The notes below the pieces were generated by a model. That model did not search any database, was not told the DNA's origin, and was given only the letters and a program-made list of their open reading frames with translations. A DNA stretch of 64,000 nt, taken from positions 151,273 through 215,272 of the forward strand of contig CAWHEU010000002.1 in NCBI GenBank assembly GCA_963828465.1, in the 5' to 3' direction. Source of the DNA: an uncultured Acidobacteriota bacterium (GTDB lineage: Bacteria; Actinomycetota; Acidimicrobiia; Spongiisociales; ZC4RG35). Of this stretch, positions 4,729 through 49,923 are shown piece by piece. Position numbers and translations under genes: made by a program. The number at the start of each line of letters is the position of its first letter. Within the stretch, counting starts at the first letter, position 1.

Positions 4729-6223
4729 TCAGACCATCTCTTCCAGTAACCGGACGACATCGGGCTTGATCGTCTTCCCCATCGCGTTCCGTGGCAGGGC
4801 ATCGGTGAAATGGAACTCCTTGGGCACCTTGTGCGGGGCGAGCCGGCCCTTCACCCACGCCTTGAGCTCTTCGGCCTCCACCGGGCCCGACGGAACCAGT
4901 ACCGCCACAACCCGCTGCCCCCACTCCGGGTCGTCGACACCGACCACCGCTGCCTCGCTGATCGCCTGGTGGCCCAGCAACACCTCCTCGATCTCGAGGG
5001 CGGAAACCTTTTCGCCTCCGGTCTTGAGGATGTCGATCGAGGACCGGCCCAGGATCCTGTAGCGACCCTCCTCGACGATCGCGGTGTCGCCGGTGCGGAA
5101 CCAGCCGTCGGAGGTGAAGGCCGAGTCAGTGTCTTCGGGTCGGTCCCAATACTCGAGGAAGACGGTGGGTCCCCTCACCTGGATCTCGCCGGGCTCATCG
5201 CCGTGAGACATCGGATCCGTCGTCGCCGACGAGGCGAACCTCGACATCCGGGAGCGGCATGCCGACCGAGCCCGGGATGCGCTCCCCTCGGTAGGGGTTG
5301 GACAGACCCATCCCGATCTCGGTCATCCCGTACCGCTCGAGCAGGGTGTGACCGGACAGCTCACGCCATCGCTCCAGGACCGGAACGGGCAGCGCAGCCG
5401 AGCCGGAGACCATGAGCCGCAGGCGGCCAACCCCGTCCCGGAAGGCGGATGTCGCTTCATCGGGCGTCTGTTCTAGTTGGGCGATGAGCCGGTGATAGAT
5501 GGTGGGGACGGCCATGTACAGGGTGAGGTCGCCGGCGGTGAGGCGGTCGACAACCTGGTCGGCGGCGAACGAGGGGAGCATGTCGCACCGCGCCCCGCTC
5601 CAAAGGGCGCAACCGATGACGTTGACGATGCCGTGAATGTGGTGCAGGGGGAGGGTGAGCAGGATGCGGTCGTCCTGATCCCACTCCCAGGCCTCGACCA
5701 ACGAGATGATCTGGGCCTGGATGTTGGCGTGGGTGGTGACCACACCTTTCGGCCGGCCCGTGGTCCCGCTGGTGAAGAGGATCATGGCTCGTCGGTCGGG
5801 CTCGATTCGAGGCAGCGGTACAAGGTCCTGGTTCAACTCCTCCACGAGTAGGAATCGAATACCTCTCGCCGCGGCCAGGGGACGGAGCAGATCTGCGAAT
5901 GCCGGGGAGGCGATGGCGATGACCGGGGTCGTGGTGTCGAGCACGTATTCCAACTCAGGTGCCGGGTGGGTGAGACAGAGCGGGACGGCGATCCCACCGG
6001 CCCGCCAGATCGCCCACTGGACTCGCACGTAGTCGAACGACGGCTCCACCATGAACGCAATCCGGGCCTCGTCGAGGTCGGTCTTGCCATCGAGCAGGCG
6101 GGCCGCGCCCCGTTCCGAACCGGTTAGCAAATCGGCGTAGGTGTGAGTCCCGGCTTGATCGGAGATGGCAATCCGGTCCGGCCACTTGCGGGCCCGGCCG
6201 ATCAAGGAGATGGACTCACCCAT
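4729..6223 (-). CDS. acyl-CoA synthetase (MatB/ACSF3-like; frameshift near 5205)
   Basis: FTSGTTGRPKG, LPLHHIHG, ERYGMTE, WFRTGD, DILKTGGEKVSALEIE, LPRNAMGK across two ORFs. Confidence 0.85.
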
Positions 6224-40281: not shown

Positions 40282-40312
40282 GTGTCCATTATCGGTCACC
40301 CACGGTGGTTAC

Positions 40313-40567
40313 TTGAACAATTCAGCCTTCAGATTCCTGATCAGGGCCGGTTGTCCTCTTTGCGATGAGGCGCGCCCGCTTGTCGAAAAGGCCGTGGCGA
40401 GCGTCGGTGGCACGGTCCGCGAGGTCGATATCGACACCGACGATGCTCTGACCAGGGAATATGGGTTGCGGGTGCCGGTTCTCCTCGGGCCGGCCGACAT
40501 CGTGCTGGCCGAGGGGAAGATCGAGGCGAGGCCTCTACGCAAGGCGTTGCGGAGAATGGCGAACTAG
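40313..40567 (+). CDS. glutaredoxin-like (DUF836) protein
   Basis: RAGCPLCDEA, VDIDTDDAL..EYGLRVPV. Confidence 0.8.
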   Translation: MNNSAFRFLIRAGCPLCDEARPLVEKAVASVGGTVREVDIDTDDALTREYGLRVPVLLGPADIVLAEGKIEARPLRKALRRMAN

Positions 40568-40589
40568 GGAAAAAAATCCGAAGGTTTGG

Positions 40590-41636
40590 CTACGAGGCCG
40601 GTGCAAGGGCGGCCGCGGCGCCGCTCACCGTGGTCGTCGTCTCTCCCTCGGCAGGCGCCTCTTCGCCCGGTGTGGTCTCTCCCGGAGCCTCTCCCTCCTC
40701 GCCCTCTGCCGGGGCCAGGCCGCAGTCGGTGAGCGTCTCAGCCGGGTCGGCGCCACCGAAACGGGCCCGCTCGAAGGCGACGACCGCGGCGAGTTGCTCC
40801 TCGGTCAGAGTCGAGCCGAACGACGGCATCCCTCCGGCGACGGGCTTGTTGGTGTCGCCATACGTCGACCGGCCTTCGCCCTGGAATCCGTCCGAACCGA
40901 GGGTGACCCACTCGATGTGATCGGTGCAGGACCCGAAGGTGGTGACGACGCCTGAGAAACCGGGCCCGACCCCGCCTTGGCCCTGGGCGCCATGACACCC
41001 GTCGCAGTTGGCCACGTTCTGATAGACGTCCTCGCCCATGGCGATGAAGTCGGCTCCTCCTCCACCTGCTCCCGAGCCGGTGAACTCGGTGCCGTCACAG
41101 TTGACTACCTGGCCGGTGATGACATTGGTGGAGAGCTCGGTGGCCTCGCCGCACTCACCGGTGGCGGAGCCGCCCAGAGCGAAGAGGGCGAAGGCGGGAA
41201 TGATCAACATGACCGCGGCCAACCAGCGGGGGATGGCGAGATTCGTCCTCTCCCTGATGCCGGCGGTGGGGACCGTGATCACTTCGGGAAGCCCGGCAGC
41301 CTCGGCGGCGGTCACCTCCGCCGGGACCGGAGAGCGCGTCACCGGGCCAGAGGGCACGGGGGCAGGCGCCGGGGTGACCGGCTCGGCGGGAACGGCTTCG
41401 GGTGCGGCCTCCTCCTCAGGCTGGGTCCCGGCCTCGGGCTCGGCCGTCGGCTCCTCGGGCGGCGCTTCCTCATCCGCAGCGGCGGGTGGAGATCCGGCGA
41501 CCAACCCGCCCCCGGCCCAGGCTGCAAGCACCTCGTCGACCGTCATCCCCGTCTCGGCAGCCCGGGCAGCAGCCGAGCGCTGGACGATGGACTCGGGGAC
41601 GCCGAGGGCTTCAGCGGCGGCGCTCAGGTCACTCAC
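40590..41636 (-). CDS. membrane-anchored monoheme cytochrome c with N-terminal shared module
   Basis: CDGCH, GGMPSFG axial Met, one TM helix, Pro/Ala/Glu linker. Confidence 0.85.
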   Translation of the reverse strand: MSDLSAAAEALGVPESIVQRSAAARAAETGMTVDEVLAAWAGGGLVAGSPPAAADEEAPPEEPTAEPEAGTQPEEEAAPEAVPAEPVTPAPAPVPSGPVTRSPVPAEVTAAEAAGLPEVITVPTAGIRERTNLAIPRWLAAVMLIIPAFALFALGGSATGECGEATELSTNVITGQVVNCDGTEFTGSGAGGGGADFIAMGEDVYQNVANCDGCHGAQGQGGVGPGFSGVVTTFGSCTDHIEWVTLGSDGFQGEGRSTYGDTNKPVAGGMPSFGSTLTEEQLAAVVAFERARFGGADPAETLTDCGLAPAEGEEGEAPGETTPGEEAPAEGETTTTVSGAAAALAPAS

Positions 41637-42480
41637 GACGGGGCCGCCTCTCCCTCGGTGGCAGGCGTCTCTCGGGGCTCTCCTCGGCAGGCTCCTCTTC
41701 AGTTGGCTCACTAGGCGCTGTCTCCTCGAGGGTGGCCGACTCGACCAGATACGCCACCAGGGCATCGAGATCTTCTGATGAGAGGGATAGGGCGGGATGG
41801 TTGTCGAGTCCGGCGATGATCGCCTCGATCTGACTCGCCGTGATCCGCGCCCCGACATTGGACAGATCCGGGCCGAAACGGCGTGATCCCAACACCTGAT
41901 TGGTGTCGCTCAGCGACACCGCCCCAAGACCGACATCCGCGACAACGGGACGCACCATCTGGGTGTGACAGGAGGCACAACCCACAGATTGGTAGATCTC
42001 CTGCCCGTGGAGGGCCGTCTCGGTGTAGGGCAGGTCACTGGTCCGTGCCCCCGGATTCTCGGTGGGGAGGGCCGGCCCCACCACTCCTACCAGGAAGAGG
42101 GCAACGAACAGGCCCACGGCTCCGACGAGGATGGCGATGGGGTTGTCGACCTCACCGACCAGGATCGGTGGCTTGCCGGAGAGAGACCGCGCGGCGGTAA
42201 CCGGGGCGGCGGCGGGCGTCTCGATGACGGGTGTTGGCGTCGTGGACGGGGTGACCGCTGGCTCTGCGGGCTCGTCGGCCTCTGCCGCCGGCGCCTCGGC
42301 GGCCTCCGGTTCAGCGGGAGCGGGCGATGCCGGTGGCGGGATGTCACCTCCACCGGCCCAGGCTGCCAGCACGTCGTCGACCGTCATGCCGGTCTCCTCC
42401 GCCCGAGCAGCGGCGGAGCGCTGCACGATCGCTTCGGGTATTCCGAGGGCAGCAGCGGCCGCAGCGCTCAGCTCACTCAT
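41629..42480 (-). CDS. cbb3-type oxidase subunit II (CcoO/FixO)-like cytochrome c
   Basis: GQEIYQSVGCASCHTQMVRP, GSRRFGPDLSNVG, DALVAYL. Confidence 0.8.
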   Translation of the reverse strand: MSELSAAAAAALGIPEAIVQRSAAARAEETGMTVDDVLAAWAGGGDIPPPASPAPAEPEAAEAPAAEADEPAEPAVTPSTTPTPVIETPAAAPVTAARSLSGKPPILVGEVDNPIAILVGAVGLFVALFLVGVVGPALPTENPGARTSDLPYTETALHGQEIYQSVGCASCHTQMVRPVVADVGLGAVSLSDTNQVLGSRRFGPDLSNVGARITASQIEAIIAGLDNHPALSLSSEDLDALVAYLVESATLEETAPSEPTEEEPAEESPERRLPPRERRPRRE

Positions 42481-43924
42481 CGGCGTCCTCGTCGCTGTCC
42501 GGGTCGGGGCCGTAGACCAGAACTTCCTGGGGGACGGCCCTGCCACTCGTGACCGTCCCGATCACGGTGGCGGCGTACGCCAGCTGTCCGAGGAAGGCCA
42601 CGATGCCGAATCCAACGGCCACGAGCATCAGCACATCGGCCGCCCCGGCCCCGGCGGCCCAGCCCTCCCCGGCGTTCACGTAGGCGGCGCTGTTCGACCC
42701 CGCCACCCACGAGTACCCGCTGACCAACCCGGCCGCGATCATGCTCACCCCGACACCGCCCACCCCTACGACGGTCCATCGATTGAAAGACCGAGGACGA
42801 TCCAAGGTGGCCGGCTCGCGGCCCGATATCCGGGGCAACGCCTCGAAGACGACGCCGGCGGCGAGCAGCACGCCGACGCCGTACAAAGCCACGTATTCGA
42901 TGGCTTCCCAGTAGGCGGTGAGTGCGGTCACCGATCCGACCGAGGGGAAGGCAGCAAAACTGGCGAGGATGGCGACTGCCACCCCCAGGTAGAGGCCCAC
43001 GATGCCAGAGGTGACGCCGGGCTTGTCCCTCAACTTCTCCCAGTGCCCTTGGAGGGTGAGCGAGGCATTGGCGGCATTGGCGAGGGCTGCAATGGGGAAG
43101 GCCAGGCCCAAGGCGGCCGACACACCGTCGATCCAACCCGGCCCGGGGCCAAAGACGAGTTGCGCCGAGCCCCACCATGCGGCGGCGAAGCCGAGTGACC
43201 AGAAGCCGACTGAAGCGAGCTGACGGGAGGCAAGGGGGATATCGAGCTCCTTGACCAGGGTGTAGTAGAAGAGCCCGCTGCCCACGGTGAATCCCCAGAG
43301 CGTGACGAATCCGGCGGAGAAGAAAAGGTCGGAGTACGCCGCACCCAGCGAGCCCACGAAGGGCAGGCTGCCAACCGCATACACGAAGTACAGCAACGGC
43401 AGCCAAGCGACGCCGCCCATCACGAACCAGAGGGTCACGAAACTTCGCTCCTCCTCCCGTCGCCGGATGGTCATCATCGTGACGGCGAAGGGAATGGTCA
43501 GCACCGCAAGCATCGGGAGGTGGAGCCACCAGGGGAGGCCAAACGGCTGTCGACCCTCACCGAGACCGAAGGCCACTGCCAGAAGGTCGAGCACGACGAG
43601 ACCCGAGACGCCGAGGAGCCCGAGGTAGGCCAGTTCCTTCCGCCACAGCCGGGCGCCGGTCAGCCTGGGGAGGACGTAGTAGATGCCACCTGCCAGCGTG
43701 AGCACGAGAAAGCCCAGCATGACCGTGATGTTGGCCATCGACTCGGCGCGGCCGTAGCTGATCGGGGACAGGCCGGCGAAGCGCAGCGAGAAGAGGGCGA
43801 TCAGTTGGAAGACGCCGGCCAGCACCAGGAAGAGAGCCCCTACCAGGAAGTGAGCGACAGCGACGCGGTCCTCATCTCCGGCCCCGAGGAGGGCCCTGAT
43901 GTCTGCAGTTTGGGTTGCGGCCAA
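42473..43924 (-). CDS. cbb3-type oxidase subunit I (CcoN)-like membrane protein lacking heme/CuB His ligands
   Basis: CcoN-like segments SYGR, YYVLPRLTGARLW, TIRRREEERSFVTLWF, FYYTLVKELDIPLASRQLASVGFWSL, LTLQGHWEKLRDKP, LPRISGRE; only 3 His, none at ligand positions. Confidence 0.75.
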   Translation of the reverse strand: MAATQTADIRALLGAGDEDRVAVAHFLVGALFLVLAGVFQLIALFSLRFAGLSPISYGRAESMANITVMLGFLVLTLAGGIYYVLPRLTGARLWRKELAYLGLLGVSGLVVLDLLAVAFGLGEGRQPFGLPWWLHLPMLAVLTIPFAVTMMTIRRREEERSFVTLWFVMGGVAWLPLLYFVYAVGSLPFVGSLGAAYSDLFFSAGFVTLWGFTVGSGLFYYTLVKELDIPLASRQLASVGFWSLGFAAAWWGSAQLVFGPGPGWIDGVSAALGLAFPIAALANAANASLTLQGHWEKLRDKPGVTSGIVGLYLGVAVAILASFAAFPSVGSVTALTAYWEAIEYVALYGVGVLLAAGVVFEALPRISGREPATLDRPRSFNRWTVVGVGGVGVSMIAAGLVSGYSWVAGSNSAAYVNAGEGWAAGAGAADVLMLVAVGFGIVAFLGQLAYAATVIGTVTSGRAVPQEVLVYGPDPDSDEDADE

Positions 43925-43973
43925 GGGTTCCCTCGTCGCGGAACGGGACGGCGGGAGCATAACTACTTCTGTT

Positions 43974-44034
43974 TCTCCCCCCAGCGAGCGCAGCGAGCGT
44001 TGGGGGGAGTACCGCCGAAGGTGGGGAGGGGGGC
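43974..44034. repeat. REP/CIR-like palindromic intergenic element
   Basis: ctcccccca...gcgagcgcagcgagcg...tggggggag-taccgccgaaggtggggagggggg, a double-hairpin architecture typical of small intergenic repeats; one copy in the window. Confidence 0.5.
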
Positions 44035-44085
44035 CGAGCGGGGACTCCAGGGTTCTCTAACGTGCCCCGGGTTGTGGTAGAAACG

Positions 44086-44103
44086 ACGTGAACAGGTATA
44101 CAA
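44086..44103. promoter_or_regulatory. possible Rex operator in the divergent respiratory promoter
   Basis: ACGTGAA-CAGG-TATACAA vs consensus TTGTGAA-N4-TTCACAA (10/14). Confidence 0.4.
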
Positions 44104-44122
44104 CCGTGCCCGAAGACGAGAG

Positions 44123-44728
44123 ATGTATCGCCTCGCAGAACTGAGCGACAGCAGACGCAAGACCATCGGATGGGGACTGCTCGGTCTGGGCTTCGTCGGC
44201 CTCGTTGTGGCGGTGATCTGGATCCACTACACCAGCCTCCCGCCCGAACAGGACGCTGGCATCTTCGATTGGATACCAAGCAACCACTTGCTGAAAGGTG
44301 TCGGCTATCTGGTTGTGTTCGGCGCCTCCCAGATGCTCGTGGTAGGAGCACTGTTCGTCTGGGTGCTCAACCAGAGAATGACCTGGGCCCGTGCCCTCTT
44401 CGCCTCTTTCGTAACCTGGATCGAGCTGGTCATCATCTTTGGGATGGTCCCGTCGGAATGGCTCAACTTCGCCCAGACAGATCTCGACTGGTCGTCACAA
44501 CGGGTGGCGGTCACCATCCCACCCGTCCTGGTGTTGGGCAACGACGTACAGCTCAGCTGGGCTGCCATCAAGGACTCGATCTCGATGGGCTACCACCTGG
44601 TGATGCTGGCGGCCGCGGCAGTGTTCGCCCTTCAGCTGCAGAAGATGAAGAAAGGCCCGCCTGCTTCCGCCGACAAGGCACCTCCCCGCTCACCGTACGG
44701 GCGGCCGCTGGTCAGGGGTGAGGGCTGA
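44123..44728 (+). CDS. 4-TM membrane protein, first gene of the bc operon
   Basis: Hydrophobic ORF with GMVPSEWL and C-terminal SPYGRPLV; TGATG coupling to the ferredoxin. Confidence 0.75.
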   Translation: MYRLAELSDSRRKTIGWGLLGLGFVGLVVAVIWIHYTSLPPEQDAGIFDWIPSNHLLKGVGYLVVFGASQMLVVGALFVWVLNQRMTWARALFASFVTWIELVIIFGMVPSEWLNFAQTDLDWSSQRVAVTIPPVLVLGNDVQLSWAAIKDSISMGYHLVMLAAAAVFALQLQKMKKGPPASADKAPPRSPYGRPLVRGEG

Positions 44729-45177
44729 TGCCCAAGGGTGTCGTCGACGAGACTCCTCCGTACCGAGACGATTATCAGCTCGCTGTCGTCGAGGGCGACT
44801 ATTTCACAGACAAGCTGCGGCCGAAGCAGTTCCTCCACATCGACCAGTCGGAGTGCATCCTCTGCGAGGGCTGTGTCGACATCTGCCCCTGGAAATGCAT
44901 CCACTATCTCTCCTTGGACGCGATCACCGAGGGCGTCAATGTCGACCATCCCGATGAGGACCCGCAGAACCTGGGGTTCTTTGTGGTCGACGAGGACGAA
45001 TGCACGCGTTGCGCCCTCTGTGTCGACCGCTGCCCCACCAATGTGATCACATTGGGCAAGTTCGAGGGGTCCCTGGCCGAGCAGGCCTCAGAGCTCGGGC
45101 TCGACCGCCGGCCCTGGGATTTCGACACCGGGCAACGTGACTTCAAGAATGGATACGCCTACGGGATGCGCTGGTAG
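44728..45177 (+). CDS. 2x[4Fe-4S] ferredoxin
   Basis: [12 protein letters not shown] and [12 protein letters not shown]. Confidence 0.9.
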
Positions 45178-45185
45178 GAGGAGGA

Positions 45186-45962
45186 TTGGCGAACGGCAAC
45201 GGTAAGACCGGTATCGGGGAAAAGATCAAAGATGCGAACGACAAACTCTGGGGCTCCCAGGTTGTCGAATCGATCCTCCGACCCGGCTCGCCCTTCAAGA
45301 AGGGCTACTCGGACAGCCCGAGAAACCGTTCATACGTGGTGATGAACAACGTGCTCTATCACCTCCACCCGGTGAAGGTGAAGCGGCACGGCGTGAAGCT
45401 GTCCTACACGCTGTGTCTGGGTGGCCTCAGCTTCTTCCTCTTCATCCTCCTCACCATCACCGGCATCTTCCTCATGTTCTATTACACGCCGTCGGCGGAG
45501 ACCGCCTACGCCGACATCGAAGCGCTGTCGACCAATGTGGCCTTCGGCTCCCTGGTGCGGAACATGCACCGATGGGGTGCCCATCTGATGGTCCTCTCGG
45601 TGTTCCTCCACATGAGCCGGGTCTTCTATCACGGCGCATACAAGCCACCGCGGGAGTTCAACTGGGTCGTGGGCGTGGTGCTCCTCTTCCTCACCCTGCT
45701 GCTCTCCTTCTCCGGCTACCTCCTGCCTTGGGACCAGTTGGCGCTGTGGGCGGTCACGGTGGGCACGAACATGGCCGGCTTCGTTCCGGTGGTGGGCAAT
45801 GAGGTGAAATTCGCCCTATTGGCGGGGGTCGAGGTGTCGGGCGCCACCCTCCTCCGCTTCTACGTGCTGCATGTACTTGCTTTCCCGTTCATCCTCGTGA
45901 TCTTCCTTGCCGTGCACTTCTGGCGGGTGCGCAAGGACGGCGGCATCTCCGGGCCCCTCTAA
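45186..45962 (+). CDS. qcrB: cytochrome b6-like subunit (split cytochrome b N-terminal domain)
   Basis: YTLCLGG (heme ci Cys), [54 protein letters not shown]. Confidence 0.92.
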
Positions 45963-45972
45963 AGGAGTCGTC

Positions 45973-47127
45973 ATGACAGAAATTCCAGAGAGTCTCCTCA
46001 GGAGGTCGGCGGAGGCCAAGGCCAAGGCATTGGGCCTGCCCGTCGAACAGGTGTTGGCCGAGATGAAGGGTGAGGCCCCGCCGACGCCACCGCCGTCGGC
46101 AGAGCCCGCGCCGGCGGATCAGTCCGAGGAGAACGTGGCCGCTGAGATGGAGGAGTCCGCAGAGCGTTCCGCCGAGATCGAGGAGGCAGTGGAGGCAGTC
46201 GACGACGAGCCTGCACCGAAGGAGGAGGTACCGGCCGAGCCGGCAGCCGAAAGCGAGCCAGAGGTCGTGGCCGAAACCGATGCCGATGTTCCCCCCGCCC
46301 CACCCACCGAGGCGCCGCCCGTTGCATCCGAAGAAGACGGAGCGGATGCTTCCTCCCCTGAAGGAGGAGATGTCGCCGAAGGCGACGGAGGGGGGCCGTC
46401 CGCTGATGATGAGGCCTCGCCTGAAACTGAAGTCGAGCCGGCCGCCGCCGCTGTGGCCACCACGGTCGAGGATCGACCAGCCCCGCAGGGAGATGGAGCG
46501 GTCGACGGCGACGGCACGGGCAACGGGTCCGGAAACGGCGCGGGCAAGGTCGCGGCCGTGGTCAGCACCCGTCCCACGGTGCCACCGAAGGGGACGCCCG
46601 AGGGGGTGCGGACGCAGCGTCTGCTCACCGTGGTCAAGGCCAGGGCCATCCAGACGGTCAAGGCCGAGCCAACGGACAAGGTCAACACGTGGCCCCACCT
46701 GATGCTCATGGAGTTCGGGGCCTTGCTGGCGATCACCGGCCTCGTAGTGATCATGTCTGTGGTCATTCACTCACCGCTGCTCGACCCGGCCAACTTCAAC
46801 GCCACTCCGAACCCATCGAAGGCACCGTGGTACTTCCTCGGCCTCCAGGAACTGCTCTCCTACTTCGATCCCCAGATCGCAGGGGTGACCATTCCCACGA
46901 TCACCGGGTTCATTGGCTTCTGGATAATCCCCTACGTCGACAAGAACCCCTCGACCCGGCCCAGCGACCGCAAGTTCGCCATCGCCCTCTACTCGGTGTT
47001 CCTCGCGGGGGCCGCGACGCTCACGATCTTCGGTGTTCTCTTCCGGGGCCTCGGCTTCAACTTCTCCTATCCCTGGAAGGACGGTGTCTACTTCGACGAC
47101 TTGAAGGACTGGGTGCAATTCGAATGA
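45973..47127 (+). CDS. cytochrome b6f subunit IV-like protein with long N-terminal extension
   Basis: TWPHL, PANFNATPNPSKAPWYFLGLQELL, PYVDKNPS..PSDRK; about 210-aa acidic N-terminal extension. Confidence 0.85.
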   Translation: MTEIPESLLRRSAEAKAKALGLPVEQVLAEMKGEAPPTPPPSAEPAPADQSEENVAAEMEESAERSAEIEEAVEAVDDEPAPKEEVPAEPAAESEPEVVAETDADVPPAPPTEAPPVASEEDGADASSPEGGDVAEGDGGGPSADDEASPETEVEPAAAAVATTVEDRPAPQGDGAVDGDGTGNGSGNGAGKVAAVVSTRPTVPPKGTPEGVRTQRLLTVVKARAIQTVKAEPTDKVNTWPHLMLMEFGALLAITGLVVIMSVVIHSPLLDPANFNATPNPSKAPWYFLGLQELLSYFDPQIAGVTIPTITGFIGFWIIPYVDKNPSTRPSDRKFAIALYSVFLAGAATLTIFGVLFRGLGFNFSYPWKDGVYFDDLKDWVQFE

Positions 47128-48003
47128 CCCTGACCAACGCCGCCCTCATCGCGGTCGCCGTGGTGGCGATCCTCGGGGCGGCCGGGGCATTTGCCGTCGC
47201 CTATCGCCGCTCCCAATCCGTCGAGAAAGCCGATCCGCTCGCCGGGGTCTCGTCAGAGACCCGCGCTGCCGACCGGTCGTCCACCGCCGTTCTGATCCCG
47301 CCCCGTGTAGAGGAGGCCGAGGAAACCGTCGAGGAAGAGGCCCCCGAGGAGGAGCCCGAACCGGCTGAGGCGGAAGAGGATGCGGTCGTCGAGATCCTGG
47401 AGACCCAGCGGATCGTCGAGGTGTCGCCGGAGGAAGGCGGAGTCAGCCGCCGTCAGTTCTTCAACAGGGCGATCGCTGCGACCTTCGGGACTTTTCTCGC
47501 TGCTCAGGGTCTCTATTACCTGGCCTTCTTCTGGCCCAAGCTGACCGGTGGCTTCGGCGCCGACATCGACGCCGGCCCAATCACCGATCTGCAAACGCAG
47601 GTGTTCACCCCCGACGGCGCCGTGCTCCCGCTGTTCATTCCCGAGGCGCGCGCCTACCTCGTCCCTGACCTCTGGGGAGCTATCCGCCCAGTTCGAGGGC
47701 CAGGGCGTGGAGACCGACGGCCTGATGGCGCTCTACATGCGATGTGTGCACCTCGGCTGCCGGGTGCCGTGGTGCGCCCCTTCGCAGGGATTCGAGTGCC
47801 CGTGTCACGGGTCGAGGTACAACGCCATTGGCCAGTATTTCGGCGGCCCTGCCCCTCGAAACCTCGACCGATTCGTCGTAGAGAACCAGGGCGGCAACCT
47901 CATCATTCGCACCGGCACCATCATCCAGACGCCCCGGGCGCCGGTGTTGACCGTCCAGTACCCGCAAGGACCTAGCTGCATCAGCGCAGTGGCCGAGGCA
48001 TGA
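47124..48003 (+). CDS. qcrA: Rieske [2Fe-2S] subunit (frameshift near 47668)
   Basis: SRRQFF Tat-like motif plus TM helix; CVHLGC, CPCHGS, GPAPRNL. Confidence 0.88.
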
Positions 48004-49923
48004 CCGCCAACATCATCACGGTCATCGCCTTGGTCGCAGGGATCGCCTGGCTGGGCATGCTCTTCGTCTCGGCCATCCGCAACCGGGGTGGCGAGGAGGT
48101 CGCTCCCAATCTTCGACCCGGTATCGACGACGAGAAGATCGAGACCCGGCGGTTGGAGGGAGGACAGAAGGCGGCCATCGCCTTCTCCGCGTTCCTCGCC
48201 ATTTCGCTCCCGCTCTATTTTCTCACCGAGCAGCAGCGACAAGAAGGCTTCGTCGTGGAGTTCGCCGAGGGCTCGATCGAGCGTGGCCGCCACCTCGTGG
48301 AAGAGTTCGGCTGTTTCAACTGCCACGGCCCGGAGGGCACCGGTGGGGTGGCCCCATATGTCGAGAAGCGCTCTGGTATTGCGGTCGAGTGGGCGGCTCC
48401 ATCGCTCAACGACGTCTTCTTCAGATACGAACAGGACGAGGTCAATTTCTGGGTCACGTACGGCCGCGGCAACACGCCCATGCCGGCATGGGGCATCCCC
48501 GGCGGTGGGCCGCTCAACGACCAACAGGTCGAAGACGTGGTCAACTATCTGGCGACCATTCAGGTCACCCAGGACGTGAACCTGTCCGACGTCGAGCCCG
48601 GGATCAGCAGCGCCCTGGACAGACTGGCCAATGCCGACGCCACGGTCGAGCTCGCCATCCTCGACCAAGAGCAGGTGGTGGCTCAGATCGAGTCGGCGCC
48701 GGCGGATGTCGCTCTGGTGGCTCCACTGGCGACACAGGCGAGGGAGGCGCTGGACGGAGCCGGCAGCGGCATCGATACCGATGCTGACGGCATCTCCGAT
48801 GCCGCCGAGACCGAGCTCAGTGAGATCTCGGCCGAGGCGGTCGCGGCGTTCCAAATCATGGAGCCGATCGCTCTCGACCCGGAGACAGCCGACGCCGAGC
48901 TGGCTGACGAGGCCCTCGCGGCCCTCGAGGTCGCATCGGAGACCGACCCCATTGTCAGGACGAACATCGGGGCCATCGAGACCGCCATCGAGGAAGGGAC
49001 ACTCGACCCGGCCATCGGGCTCAGCCCGGCCTCATTGGCCGGCCCTAGAAGAGACACGTGCCGCGGCGGAAGAGGCCGGCGTCGAAGCCGCAGGCCCGAT
49101 CGAGGATCTGGCTGGTGCAAATGAGTTGGTCGCCGCGCTGGAGGCCGCCGCAGCTGCAGATCCAGCTGTCGAGGGTGCGGCCGACCTGGCGGCCGAGGCG
49201 ACGGCGGCGATCGAGGAAGGCTCCGACCCCGATGGCGACGGATTGTCGACTGGCGCCGAGAACGCAATCAACGGTCAGATCGAGGCCGCCATCACGGCCA
49301 CCACGCCGGCCGCGATCACTTTGGTCACTCTCGATCCGACCAACCCGGCCTCGGTCGGCGGGGAGCCTGACGCCACGACTGCCAACACATTGGTGGGCAA
49401 TCTGGAGTCGCTATCTACCACTCTCTCGGTCACCGAGCAGAACCAGGACGCTGTCCTCGAGACCGCAGAGGGCGGTCTGGTCTATCTCGAGGAATCCCAA
49501 CAGGCCGAGCTCTATTCGATCGATTTCGCCGGCGTGGCGGAGGCGATGGCGTCTTCGCCCGAGGAGGCAGAAAGGGCGGTTGGTCTGTTCAACTCCAACT
49601 GCGCCCGGTGTCACACCGCCGGTTACAGCGCTGGCGTCCCCTACACCCAGGAGGCGGGCTCCGGAGGCTTCGGGCCGGCGCTGTGGGACGGCCGCCCGAC
49701 GGTGCAATTCGGCGACGCGAACCAGGACCCGGCGCAGGACCTGTTGGTCCAGTTCCTGATCAGGGGCTCCGAGGCCGAGACGCCCTATGGTCTCAACGGG
49801 TTCGGCACCGGCCGGATGCCGGCCTTCGGTGCCAGCCTCAGCATGGAGGACATCGAGTTGCTCGCCCGATATCTGCGGGGTGGGAACATGGACGGGAAGG
49901 AGGCCGCCGTTGTTCTTCCGTGA
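48000..49923 (+). CDS. large diheme cytochrome c subunit (frameshift near 49043)
   Basis: CFNCH...TPMPAWG and CARCH...RMPAFG separated by a long acidic insert. Confidence 0.85.

Follow-up and report, generated by a model that had tools for sequence, protein, structure and literature searches.

A cbb3-type oxidase subunit I homologue without haem and copper ligands beside a b6-type complex in Acidimicrobiia

In haem-copper oxidases (HCOs) six His residues of subunit I bind the low-spin and high-spin haems and CuB/FeB, and to our knowledge all described haem-copper oxidases and NO reductases keep the subunit I haem/metal ligands. The bc1 'core' proteins, for their part, are peptidase-derived. 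As far as the excerpts of Murali et al. 2024 (PMC11214002) go, eNOR, bNOR, sNOR, gNOR and nNOR are newly described HCO families, proposed to be NO reductases, in which the Tyr is absent or one ligand is changed (Asp for His in gNOR) and the haem/metal site is kept, and qNOR has a fused NorC-like part that lacks a haem c binding motif. Here we explore a homologue of CcoN, the subunit I of cbb3-type oxidases, hereafter pCcoN. Like the families in those excerpts (PMC11214002) it is a divergent HCO-superfamily branch with an altered active site that was found by genomics, but in pCcoN every ligand is gone. It resembles the N-terminal domain of qNOR and the bc1 'core' relics in that a module that once held a cofactor or a catalytic site has been kept structurally; in qNOR, however, an accessory part degenerated, whereas in pCcoN it is the catalytic subunit itself. 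Full-text searches of the literature, subscription journals and supplements excepted, turned up no paper on a CcoN or other HCO subunit I that lacks these His.

The window, i.e. the whole stretch of 64,000 nucleotides that was analysed, contains the following features of relevance.

40590-41636, minus strand: third subunit, a monohaem cytochrome c of 348 aa (PF00034/PF13442, E 4e-8)
41629-42480, minus strand: CcoO-like monohaem cytochrome c of 283 aa (FixO PF02433, E 1.7e-12)
42473-43960, minus strand: pCcoN, 495 aa, a 12-helix cbb3 subunit I homologue without the six His ligands
43961-44122, no strand: divergent intergenic region of 162 bp, shared with the b6 operon
44123-44728, plus strand: membrane protein of 201 aa, first gene of the divergent operon, no family match
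44728-45177, plus strand: 2x[4Fe-4S] ferredoxin-type subunit (Fer4 families, E 6e-13)
45186-45962, plus strand: cytochrome b6-type subunit (PF00033, E 1.6e-47)
45907-47127, plus strand: ORF with the subunit IV part (PetD/ExtQ-like; PF00032 at residues 294-377; NF040970, E 1.1e-12) in its C-terminal half, exact start uncertain
47548-48003, plus strand: Rieske [2Fe-2S] protein (PF00355, E 1.1e-7; genome match C2:198985-199143)
48000-49124, plus strand: membrane-anchored monohaem cytochrome c of the b6 operon (CFNCH)
48631-49923, plus strand: ORF with a C-terminal cytochrome c domain (CARCH), exact start uncertain

The pCcoN protein and its fold

The pCcoN ORF has an ATG start and no internal stop; an in-frame TTG at 43924 is its codon 13, and either start is possible. 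The intact, frameshift-free CcoN-like ORF of the preliminary description is thereby recovered, longer at 495 aa with the ATG start, and its count of three His in the whole protein is correct. Pfam COX1 (PF00115) matched residues 32-422 with profile positions 1-412 of 436 (E 8e-19, 68.2 bits, gathering score 34.8), and the CcoN equivalog TIGR00780 gave 88.3 bits, below its cut-off of 583.15. The top five sequence matches among solved structures were all cbb3 CcoN chains (9g83_t, 9g6b_A, 6xkw_n, 3mk7_A and 8smr_E, E 4.7e-13 to 5.5e-7). An AlphaFold2 model, made from an alignment with identities of 26-93%, showed 12 long helices (pLDDT 89.3, pTM 0.90). When it was searched with Foldseek the top 7 structures were CcoN chains (TM 0.81-0.88, rmsd 2.6-3.0 A, 18-20% identity), with A/B-type subunit I and NorB at TM 0.69-0.76. 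At the level of the predicted structure, retention of the 12-TM subunit I fold is confirmed, and both the COX1/CcoN relationship and the fold that had been proposed from the letters of the sequence hold.

CcoN (3mk7/5djq, 6xkw, 8smr, 9g6b, 9g83), also with 12 TM helices, is thus the best match in sequence and fold. The likeness extends to the CcoO-type cytochrome c gene that follows and to motifs near the former ligands, namely G-R in TM2, YY..P.R, YY...K, FW.L, W.G and P.W. Unlike CcoN, pCcoN lacks all six His ligands and the Tyr at the cross-link position; and compared with ccoNOP, the third subunit is monohaem rather than a dihaem CcoP, and ccoS (FixS, PF03597) had no match in the genome, which is 92.29% complete. 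In databases such genes go by the name 'cbb3-type cytochrome c oxidase subunit I'.

Partner cytochromes and the adjacent b6 operon

The CcoO-like gene lies directly downstream of pCcoN in 33/33 loci. Both junctions overlap by 8 nt, the ATG of the CcoO-like gene with the pCcoN stop and the GTG of the third gene with the CcoO-like stop, which bears out the coupling to two c-type cytochromes noticed initially. The CcoO-like protein scores 47.7 bits with FixO PF02433 (cut-off 29.6), is matched by CcoO chains (3mk7_B and others, E 3e-11) and consists of a cytoplasmic N-terminal motif of 45 aa, one TM helix and a CASCH site. This CxxCH is invariant in 25/25 aligned sequences; the Met-ligand segment of CcoO is missing and a nearly invariant His-Pro is found there instead. 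The third subunit is built alike, with the same N-terminal motif, which is conserved in both partners, one TM helix and CDGCH. Unlike a dihaem CcoP, it carries one CxxCH, and it scores 23 bits with TIGR00782 (ccoP, cut-off 179.95). Fused pCcoN-CcoO relatives of 613-714 aa were also found, in other lineages, with one CxxCH in the added C-terminal part in 26 of the 28.

A complex model of pCcoN with the CcoO-like protein scored 0.87 versus 0.02 for the best control, the mark being reached by 116/157 solved complexes and 2/215 mismatched pairs. Between runs at least 84% of the contacts recurred, and the pLDDT of the partner was 78 or higher. As CcoN-CcoO complexes are solved, this pass may reflect likeness only. 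Of the 62 conserved pCcoN residues, 16 are among the 89 residues of the predicted interface (of 456 in all), which is no significant enrichment (odds ratio 1.5, p 0.12). Binding of the CcoO-like cytochrome c by pCcoN is supported but not proven.

The b6 operon starts on the other side of the intergenic region; a scan of 40300-44300 gave no sigma-70-like promoter or terminator match. The 201-aa membrane protein gene is conserved in synteny. The b6-type subunit, the sole PF00033 match in the genome, reaches 301.8 bits with NF040969 (cytb_ExtP), above the equivalog cut-off of 290. Together with the 2x[4Fe-4S] protein this resembles ExtP/ExtQ-type and b6-type complexes (NF040969/NF040970), a likeness that belongs to the neighbouring operon and not to pCcoN; the literature searched did not yield a dead oxidase subunit linked to such complexes. 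The only true oxidase found in the genome is A-type (caa3), of which subunit II bears a cytochrome c domain, and a bd oxidase was not found in this 92% complete assembly.

The divergent b6 operon stands beside pCcoN in 31/33 loci, the remaining two stopping at the locus edge, and in 9/9 loci from distant Acidimicrobiia, 1-Mb genomes included. A b6-type cytochrome was present in 192 of the 201 sampled Acidimicrobiia versus pCcoN in 87, and pCcoN was absent from families f9 (0/9) and f14 (0/21), still so when queried with a profile (0/5 and 0/12). The b6 complex therefore works without pCcoN. At 5/5 loci of pCcoN-negative Acidimicrobiia that still have the b6 operon, pCcoN and the CcoO-like gene were jointly missing, the third cytochrome being retained at four of the five.

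We assign a probability of roughly 55% to the reading in which pCcoN is a dead HCO shell, kept beside the b6 complex as the anchor or scaffold of a c-haem relay. Its ancestor would be the catalytic subunit of a cbb3-type oxidase, and purifying selection would maintain it as the 12-helix membrane partner of the translationally coupled CcoO-like cytochrome c. The pair, with the third membrane-anchored cytochrome c, would stand beside the sole complex III, a b6-type Rieske/cytochrome b complex that comes with a ferredoxin of its own. Together the three proteins may fix c-haems in position so that electrons pass to the caa3 oxidase, or alternatively may only brace a supercomplex; they could be the fossil of an ancestral bc-cbb3 supercomplex in which the oxidase chemistry was given up. 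We infer the relay or scaffold role from gene context; rather than an oxidase, pCcoN is probably the membrane partner of a small cytochrome c. If the haem of the CcoO-like protein is bis-His ligated and of lower potential, it would be less suited to relaying electrons to an oxidase of high potential.

It is rather unlikely that pCcoN instead helps to assemble or stabilise the b6-type complex or caa3 while taking no part in electron transfer itself. Such a role would fit its divergent placement from the b6 operon wherever the flank suffices, and cbb3-bc1 supercomplexes exist among solved structures (titles of 6xkw, 8smr and 9g83), but the invariant CxxCH of its constant partner argues for a redox-active haem in the unit, and many families have the b6 complex without pCcoN.

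The former ligand sites

In four independent MAFFT alignments with His-bearing relatives, the six haem/CuB His columns correspond to A76, A216, A266, Q267, I354 and Y356 of pCcoN, all four reproducing the by-eye pairing with RAESMANI, LFFSAG, WWGSAQL and WEAIEY on which the preliminary description had based the replacement of the six His. Pairwise HMMER alignments to 9g83_t and 9g6b_A put the same residues at five sites; the sixth, in the WWYGHN segment, falls in a gapped stretch there, and its pairing comes from the MAFFT alignments alone. The same HMMER alignments place A260 at the Tyr of CcoN that precedes the first CuB His by six residues. This helix VII Tyr we take, from the 3MK7 literature, to be the active-site (cross-link) Tyr. 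From the sequence and the known ligand roles it follows that pCcoN, deprived of haem b, haem b3, CuB and the cross-linked Tyr, should be incapable of O2 or NO reduction.

At the cytoplasmic face R99, R168, E170, K237, R246, R381, R394 and E479 are nearly invariant, and the conserved polar residues sit at helix ends. This face and the intact 12-TM fold might suit a channel, transporter or sensor that reuses the old proton/oxygen pathways of the oxidase fold, the N-terminal cytoplasmic motif of both cytochromes being able to signal or dock there. We nevertheless consider this improbable. No conserved charged chain crosses the membrane and no conserved charge is found mid-helix in pCcoN, because of which a channel is disfavoured as judged from the alignments; moreover R99 and K237 align with Arg or Lys of real CcoN, and several conserved basic residues, these two among them, look ancestral and structural. 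The initial proposal of a repurposed scaffold, channel or sensor is hence narrowed: as far as sequence can tell, the scaffold is favoured and the channel is not.

Less credible still is that pCcoN remains a redox enzyme, with a haem or other metal on non-His ligands and a new chemistry. Y356, at a former haem b ligand site, is Tyr in close relatives, and H37 in TM1 is 87% conserved; yet Y356 is replaced elsewhere by F, I, V, L, T, W or A. At the six sites of the His-less clade Ala, Gly, Ser, Val, Leu and the like predominate, and a search of the pCcoN family for a replacement ligand in mid-helix found none that is conserved, be it His, Met, Cys, Lys or an acidic residue (Asp, Glu).

Distribution, selection and history of the loss

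The loss is shared by 120/120 close homologues among the matches listed, each with 1-7 His in total, by 9/9 more distant Acidimicrobiia copies that were fetched and, in an alignment of 96 full-length sequences (the query and 95 cluster representatives), by 65. Within Acidimicrobiia, genomes of 1 Mb have His-less copies, and other classes of the same phylum have them too. Fourteen loci were compared for selection, and the 11 unsaturated pairs (dS below 1.4) gave pCcoN dN/dS values of 0.069-0.127. By this measure pCcoN evolves 2-5 times faster than the neighbouring genes, and in the distant Acidimicrobiia loci its identity is 23-25% where cytochrome b6 keeps 76-77%.

A decaying pseudogene, i.e. 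a former cbb3 oxidase gene without function, can be dismissed: all catalytic residues are gone, dN/dS exceeds that of the neighbours, the frame is broken at 2/33 loci and many families of the class lack the gene, but dN/dS of 0.07-0.13, on which this reading was rejected, full-length open frames at 31/33 related loci, retention in 42/47 genomes of one family with about 1-Mb genomes and a fold predicted at pLDDT 89 from an alignment of 26-93% identity all contradict it. Two expectations of the preliminary description, a His loss common to the orthologues and dN/dS below 1, are accordingly what we observe, and its notion of a catalytically dead, conserved branch that is not in decay is supported, as far as the shared loss, the predicted fold and dN/dS can tell.

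Two trees (quick and FastTree searches, with long branches and with the joining of L038 to L066 flagged as suspect) have starred branches that require the 'no His' state to have changed at least 5-6 times; a single origin as the sole loss event is unsupported.

A wider form of the preferred reading, the dead shell as c-haem anchor, can be put forward only tentatively. In Acidimicrobiia and related Actinomycetota the shell would be the obligatory structural core of an unseen respiratory supercomplex, made of the b6-type Rieske/cytochrome b complex with its ferredoxin, pCcoN with the CcoO-like protein, and caa3. As the fossil of an ancestral bc-cbb3 supercomplex it would have outlasted the loss of its chemistry, and several independent cofactor losses in the C family would have passed through intermediates with low-spin haem b only.

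A large conserved ligand-free clade would be the first 'pseudo-oxidase' branch of the HCO superfamily and a natural experiment in what the HCO fold does without cofactors, and the unusual b6-type complex that constantly accompanies it suggests a respiratory chain of uncharacterised layout. There is also a practical consequence, since genome papers take such annotation matches for high-affinity oxidases: low-oxygen respiration deduced from a pCcoN gene would be wrong for Acidimicrobiia, a group common in soil and marine settings, including the family with genomes of about 1 Mb. A possible example is PMC8357290, in which the oxidases given for the MAGs are of caa3 and cbb3 type.

In addition, 7% of the sampled sequence words were present in one metatranscriptome from a rhizosphere, X1. 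From it 33 contig pieces fit, covering parts of all three genes; they are contigs of relatives, and an RNA library may hold DNA, so they do not prove transcription. By identity, 3 of the pieces reach at least 99%, 6 fall within 95-99% and 24 within 90-95%.

Fold and ligand sites of the His-less CcoN homologue

The gene for the His-less CcoN homologue (hereafter pCcoN) forms a trio with two cytochrome c genes, and a divergent operon begins 162 bp from it. The features of this region, in window coordinates, are:

42473-43960 (-): pCcoN, unbroken ORF, ATG start, 495 aa
41629-42480 (-): CcoO-like cytochrome c, 8-nt overlap with the preceding gene
40590-41636 (-): third cytochrome c, monohaem, 8-nt overlap with the preceding gene
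Divergent operon: unknown 201-aa membrane protein
Divergent operon: 2x[4Fe-4S] ferredoxin
Divergent operon: cytochrome b6, above the NCBIfam ExtP equivalog cut-off
Divergent operon: subunit IV
Divergent operon: Rieske protein
Divergent operon: two further cytochromes c

The start set in the preliminary description, 43924, falls on a TTG in frame at codon 13, which some database homologues also use as their start; the ORF extends upstream to an ATG at 43960, preceded by GGGGAGAAA. Its count of three His in the whole protein was correct. The homology to CcoN that it had read by eye is borne out by the Pfam COX1 profile, almost all of which is covered (E 8e-19, 68.2 bits, cut-off 34.8). The top NCBIfam model is ccoN at 88 bits, below its equivalog cut-off of 583, and the top five matches among solved structures are all cbb3 CcoN chains. 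An AlphaFold2 model with 52 homologues as input (pLDDT 89.3, pTM 0.90) retains the oxidase fold: its first seven Foldseek matches are CcoN chains (TM 0.81-0.88, rmsd 2.6-3.0 Å), with NorB and A/B-type subunit I ranking below.

For the ligand sites, the query was aligned with 95 listed representatives of 50%-identity clusters of at least 400 aa, the 55 shorter of the 150 listed being excluded. Some 20 rows share six His columns, at which the query has A76, A216, A266, Q267, I354 and Y356. Identical query residues were obtained in three more alignments with other sequence sets, and five of the sites are confirmed by HMMER alignments to 9g83_t and 9g6b_A, in which the WWYGHN segment falls in a gap; these HMMER alignments also pair A260 with the Tyr located six positions ahead of the first CuB His. 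The six His columns and the Tyr column hold the ligands of haem b, haem b3 and CuB and the cross-linked Tyr, as is established for cbb3 oxidase (3MK7). The by-eye pairing of RAESMANI, LFFSAG, WWGSAQL and WEAIEY with the CcoN ligand segments is reproduced exactly by the computed alignments, with no His at the six sites. pCcoN is a CcoN homologue with its fold intact and every cofactor ligand gone; the observation is real and conserved, and the oxidase annotation of the gene is wrong.

Polar residues at least 75% conserved in pCcoN are located in loops or at helix ends, none of them is a charged residue in mid-helix, and several conserved basic residues align to Arg or Lys in real CcoN, a pattern that argues against a conserved route for protons or ions and also against substitute ligands. 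Among the roles proposed earlier, scaffold, channel or sensor, the lack of a conserved mid-helix charge disfavours the channel, while gene context points to a scaffold.

Family, phylogeny and selection

Scoring of 8000 candidates from a word-indexed search gave 438 proteins with E ≤0.001. The 120 homologues listed are 59-93% identical and contain one to seven His each, and many are from Acidimicrobiia and named 'cbb3-type cytochrome c oxidase subunit I'. When the 50%-identity representatives were searched exhaustively, 567 matches had E ≤0.001. The six sites are devoid of His in 65 of the 96 aligned rows, carry one to four in 11 and five or six in 20; pCcoN from nine of nine more distant Acidimicrobiia loci also lacks the six His. 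The preliminary description had suggested looking for a shared loss in orthologues, and His loss is indeed ancient and common to relatives. In 26 of the 28 rows that are 613-714 aa long, a CcoO-like extension at the C terminus has one CxxCH. In one of the remaining two, the His-less representative P0175 (694 aa), a C-terminal cupredoxin-like domain with the C..H..M motif ...YFRCDVHPNMNG... replaces the usual CcoO-like haem c domain, and is another small electron carrier joined to the same shell.

Two trees were built by fast searches, FastTree on the 96 rows with ligand columns taken out and a quick IQ-TREE on 67 rows selected from the 96 and fetched genome loci; the long-branch pair L038 and L066, both fetched loci, was flagged as suspect. 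The pCcoN of the window falls inside a large, nearly all His-less group in FastTree (54 rows, support 98) as well as in IQ-TREE (31 rows, SH-aLRT 94), and in both trees this group takes in the fused forms and copies from other classes. Further rows that lack the His or are degenerate in part nest in well-supported His-bearing groups, for instance P0248, P0233, P0235 and P0267 with P0260 and P0244 at support 99, so that His loss probably happened more than once. A second His-poor group (P0248, P0233, P0235, P0262, P0267, P0227, P0266), found inside well-supported His-bearing clades in both trees, probably represents independent degeneration.

Nei-Gojobori dN/dS was determined against the window for 14 of 33 related loci, picked for complete genes and flanks. 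Values for pCcoN are 0.069-0.127 in the 11 pairs with dS <1.4 and 0.15-0.25 in three saturated pairs, those for the ferredoxin 0.005-0.061 and for cytochrome b6 0.023-0.079 at the same 14 loci. Purifying selection on pCcoN is clear, in line with the dN/dS below 1 envisaged beforehand, yet laxer than for its neighbours. Its frame is broken in two of the 33 loci, L032 (8001-9486, one frame change) and L036 (8001-9452, two frame changes), both assemblies of one series, where sequencing error cannot be told from decay. The MAG of L036 has, on other contigs, two further copies that are intact (L006, L008), and its bin is therefore probably mixed. In a class-wide genome search, eight of the 88 matches listed have one in-frame stop inside the matched span.

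The MAGs of L006, L008-L010, L012-L014, L018, L020, L032 and L036 have record titles reading 'uncultured Acidobacteriota'. Their protein is 87-97% identical to that of loci titled Acidimicrobiia and gene order is the same, which suggests that the records are mislabelled.

Gene neighbourhood and distribution

The coupling to two c-type cytochromes claimed in the preliminary description holds well beyond the window, the CcoO-like and third cytochrome genes being downstream of pCcoN in 33 of 33 loci. Ferredoxin and b6 genes are found upstream on the opposite strand in 31, and the other two loci end there. Eight of the nine more distant Acidimicrobiia loci have the same layout, and in the ninth its two parts are 4 kb apart; three of the eight are from a family with ~1-Mb genomes, where pCcoN has 23-25% identity versus 76-77% for cytochrome b6. 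Just past the trio lies a SAM hydroxide adenosyltransferase gene (PF01887/PF20257; 39166-40038, +), present at the same place in 26 of the 33 related loci and in several distant ones; the other seven, six of which are short loci, gave no match.

A protein query matched pCcoN in 87 of the 201 genomes that were sampled from the class: 20/20 in family f1, 6/6 in f4, 8/9 in f3 and 42/47 in f12, and 0/9 in f9, 0/21 in f14, 0/7 in f11, 0/11 in f15 and 0/10 in f17. A b6-type cytochrome is present in 192 of the 201. Five b6 loci from pCcoN-negative genomes all keep the b6 operon, four with a divergent homologue of the third cytochrome, and have neither pCcoN nor the CcoO-like gene within ~9 kb; hence pCcoN and the CcoO-like protein are gained or lost together and the b6 complex has no need of them.

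Of 401 genomes sampled from the phylum, a family profile matched 34, families outside the class included (f49 10/10, f51 8/21); these tallies include G277, a genome flagged as unpublished, on which no other result depends. Eleven profile-matched loci were fetched. Six are His-less or have one His, five of these with ferredoxin and/or b6 genes 5-7 kb off, and three retain all six His, so real cbb3 oxidases are present in the phylum. The remaining two are intermediates from other classes of the phylum: of the six sites, L060 (G203:C5) retains just the first and the last, which in CcoN bind low-spin haem b, and L066 (G257:C5) retains four. These would fit a stepwise loss in which the binuclear centre went first.

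The CcoO-like partner and respiratory context

The CcoO-like protein matches CcoO chains with E 3e-11, spanning CcoO residues 43-118, and CxxCH, Q-x-V-R and P-D-L are invariant in 25 of 25 sequences. Where CcoO has ~60 residues including the Met-ligand region, the CcoO-like protein has ~25 with a nearly invariant His-Pro; judged by its sequence, it would hold a bis-His haem. A complex of pCcoN 27-482 and CcoO-like 100-262, modelled with an alignment for each and three controls, scored 0.87 (runs 0.87, 0.87 and 0.89; best control 0.02), passing a mark that 116 out of 157 solved complexes attained, as against 2 out of 215 mismatches; no less than 84% of contacts are common to the runs, and partner pLDDT is 78 or more. 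Solved CcoN-CcoO complexes exist, so this pass may come from resemblance alone. Predicted contacts show no enrichment of conserved pCcoN residues (16/62, p 0.12), which argues against a strongly constrained interface. Fusions and joint presence or absence provide support independent of the model, and a pCcoN/CcoO-like unit is supported, not proven.

Both trio cytochromes open with a shared cytoplasmic N-terminal motif of ~45 aa, LSAAA..LG.PE.IVQRSAAARA.ETGMTVD.VLAAWAGGG (42346-42480 and 41502-41636, both -), which has no Pfam match. All 25 CcoO-like sequences, those of the 1-Mb genomes included, share P15, R21, S22, A25, R26, A27, G31, L38, W41 and G44. The third cytochrome of pCcoN-negative genomes opens with a shorter related motif, [IV]PEHLLKRS[RK][ED]RRSA, and L038 has a third copy of the motif within the b6 operon, near position 5987 (-).

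The genome of the window (92.3% complete, contamination 4.8%) has one true A-type COX1 (E 4e-154). Because the adjoining subunit II bears a C-terminal cytochrome c domain (CIQCH), this oxidase is classed as caa3-type. The single cytochrome b of the genome is the one in the window, and no match to a bd oxidase or to CcoS was found at this completeness. From context we infer that the pCcoN/CcoO-like unit acts together with the b6-type complex and caa3 oxidase, where it might be a holder of c-haems or the brace of a supercomplex. Structure titles (6xkw, 8smr, 9g83) describe supercomplexes of cbb3 oxidases with bc1, in view of which an ancestral bc-cbb3 assembly that dropped oxidase chemistry and retained its shell would be a plausible history. 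Searches of the main text of openly available papers returned no account of a CcoN or HCO subunit I that lacks the His. The new HCO families in PMC11214002, the most pertinent paper, are without the Tyr or have one ligand changed, yet are still metal enzymes, whereas in pCcoN all six ligands are gone. pCcoN, whose mechanism we infer, adds a cofactor-less branch to a very well known family.

The genome of the window also has two nearly identical ORFs (L003, C14:17481-17858; L004, C5:20095-20472) for a multi-helix membrane protein; they span 408 codons between stop codons, or 398 aa when started at the first Met. Their COX1 match is sub-threshold (25.8 bits vs 34.8), and a THVHAGTLGW motif resembles the haem-binding helix X of oxidases. 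Given the contamination of 4.8%, the duplicate may be a strain mixture.
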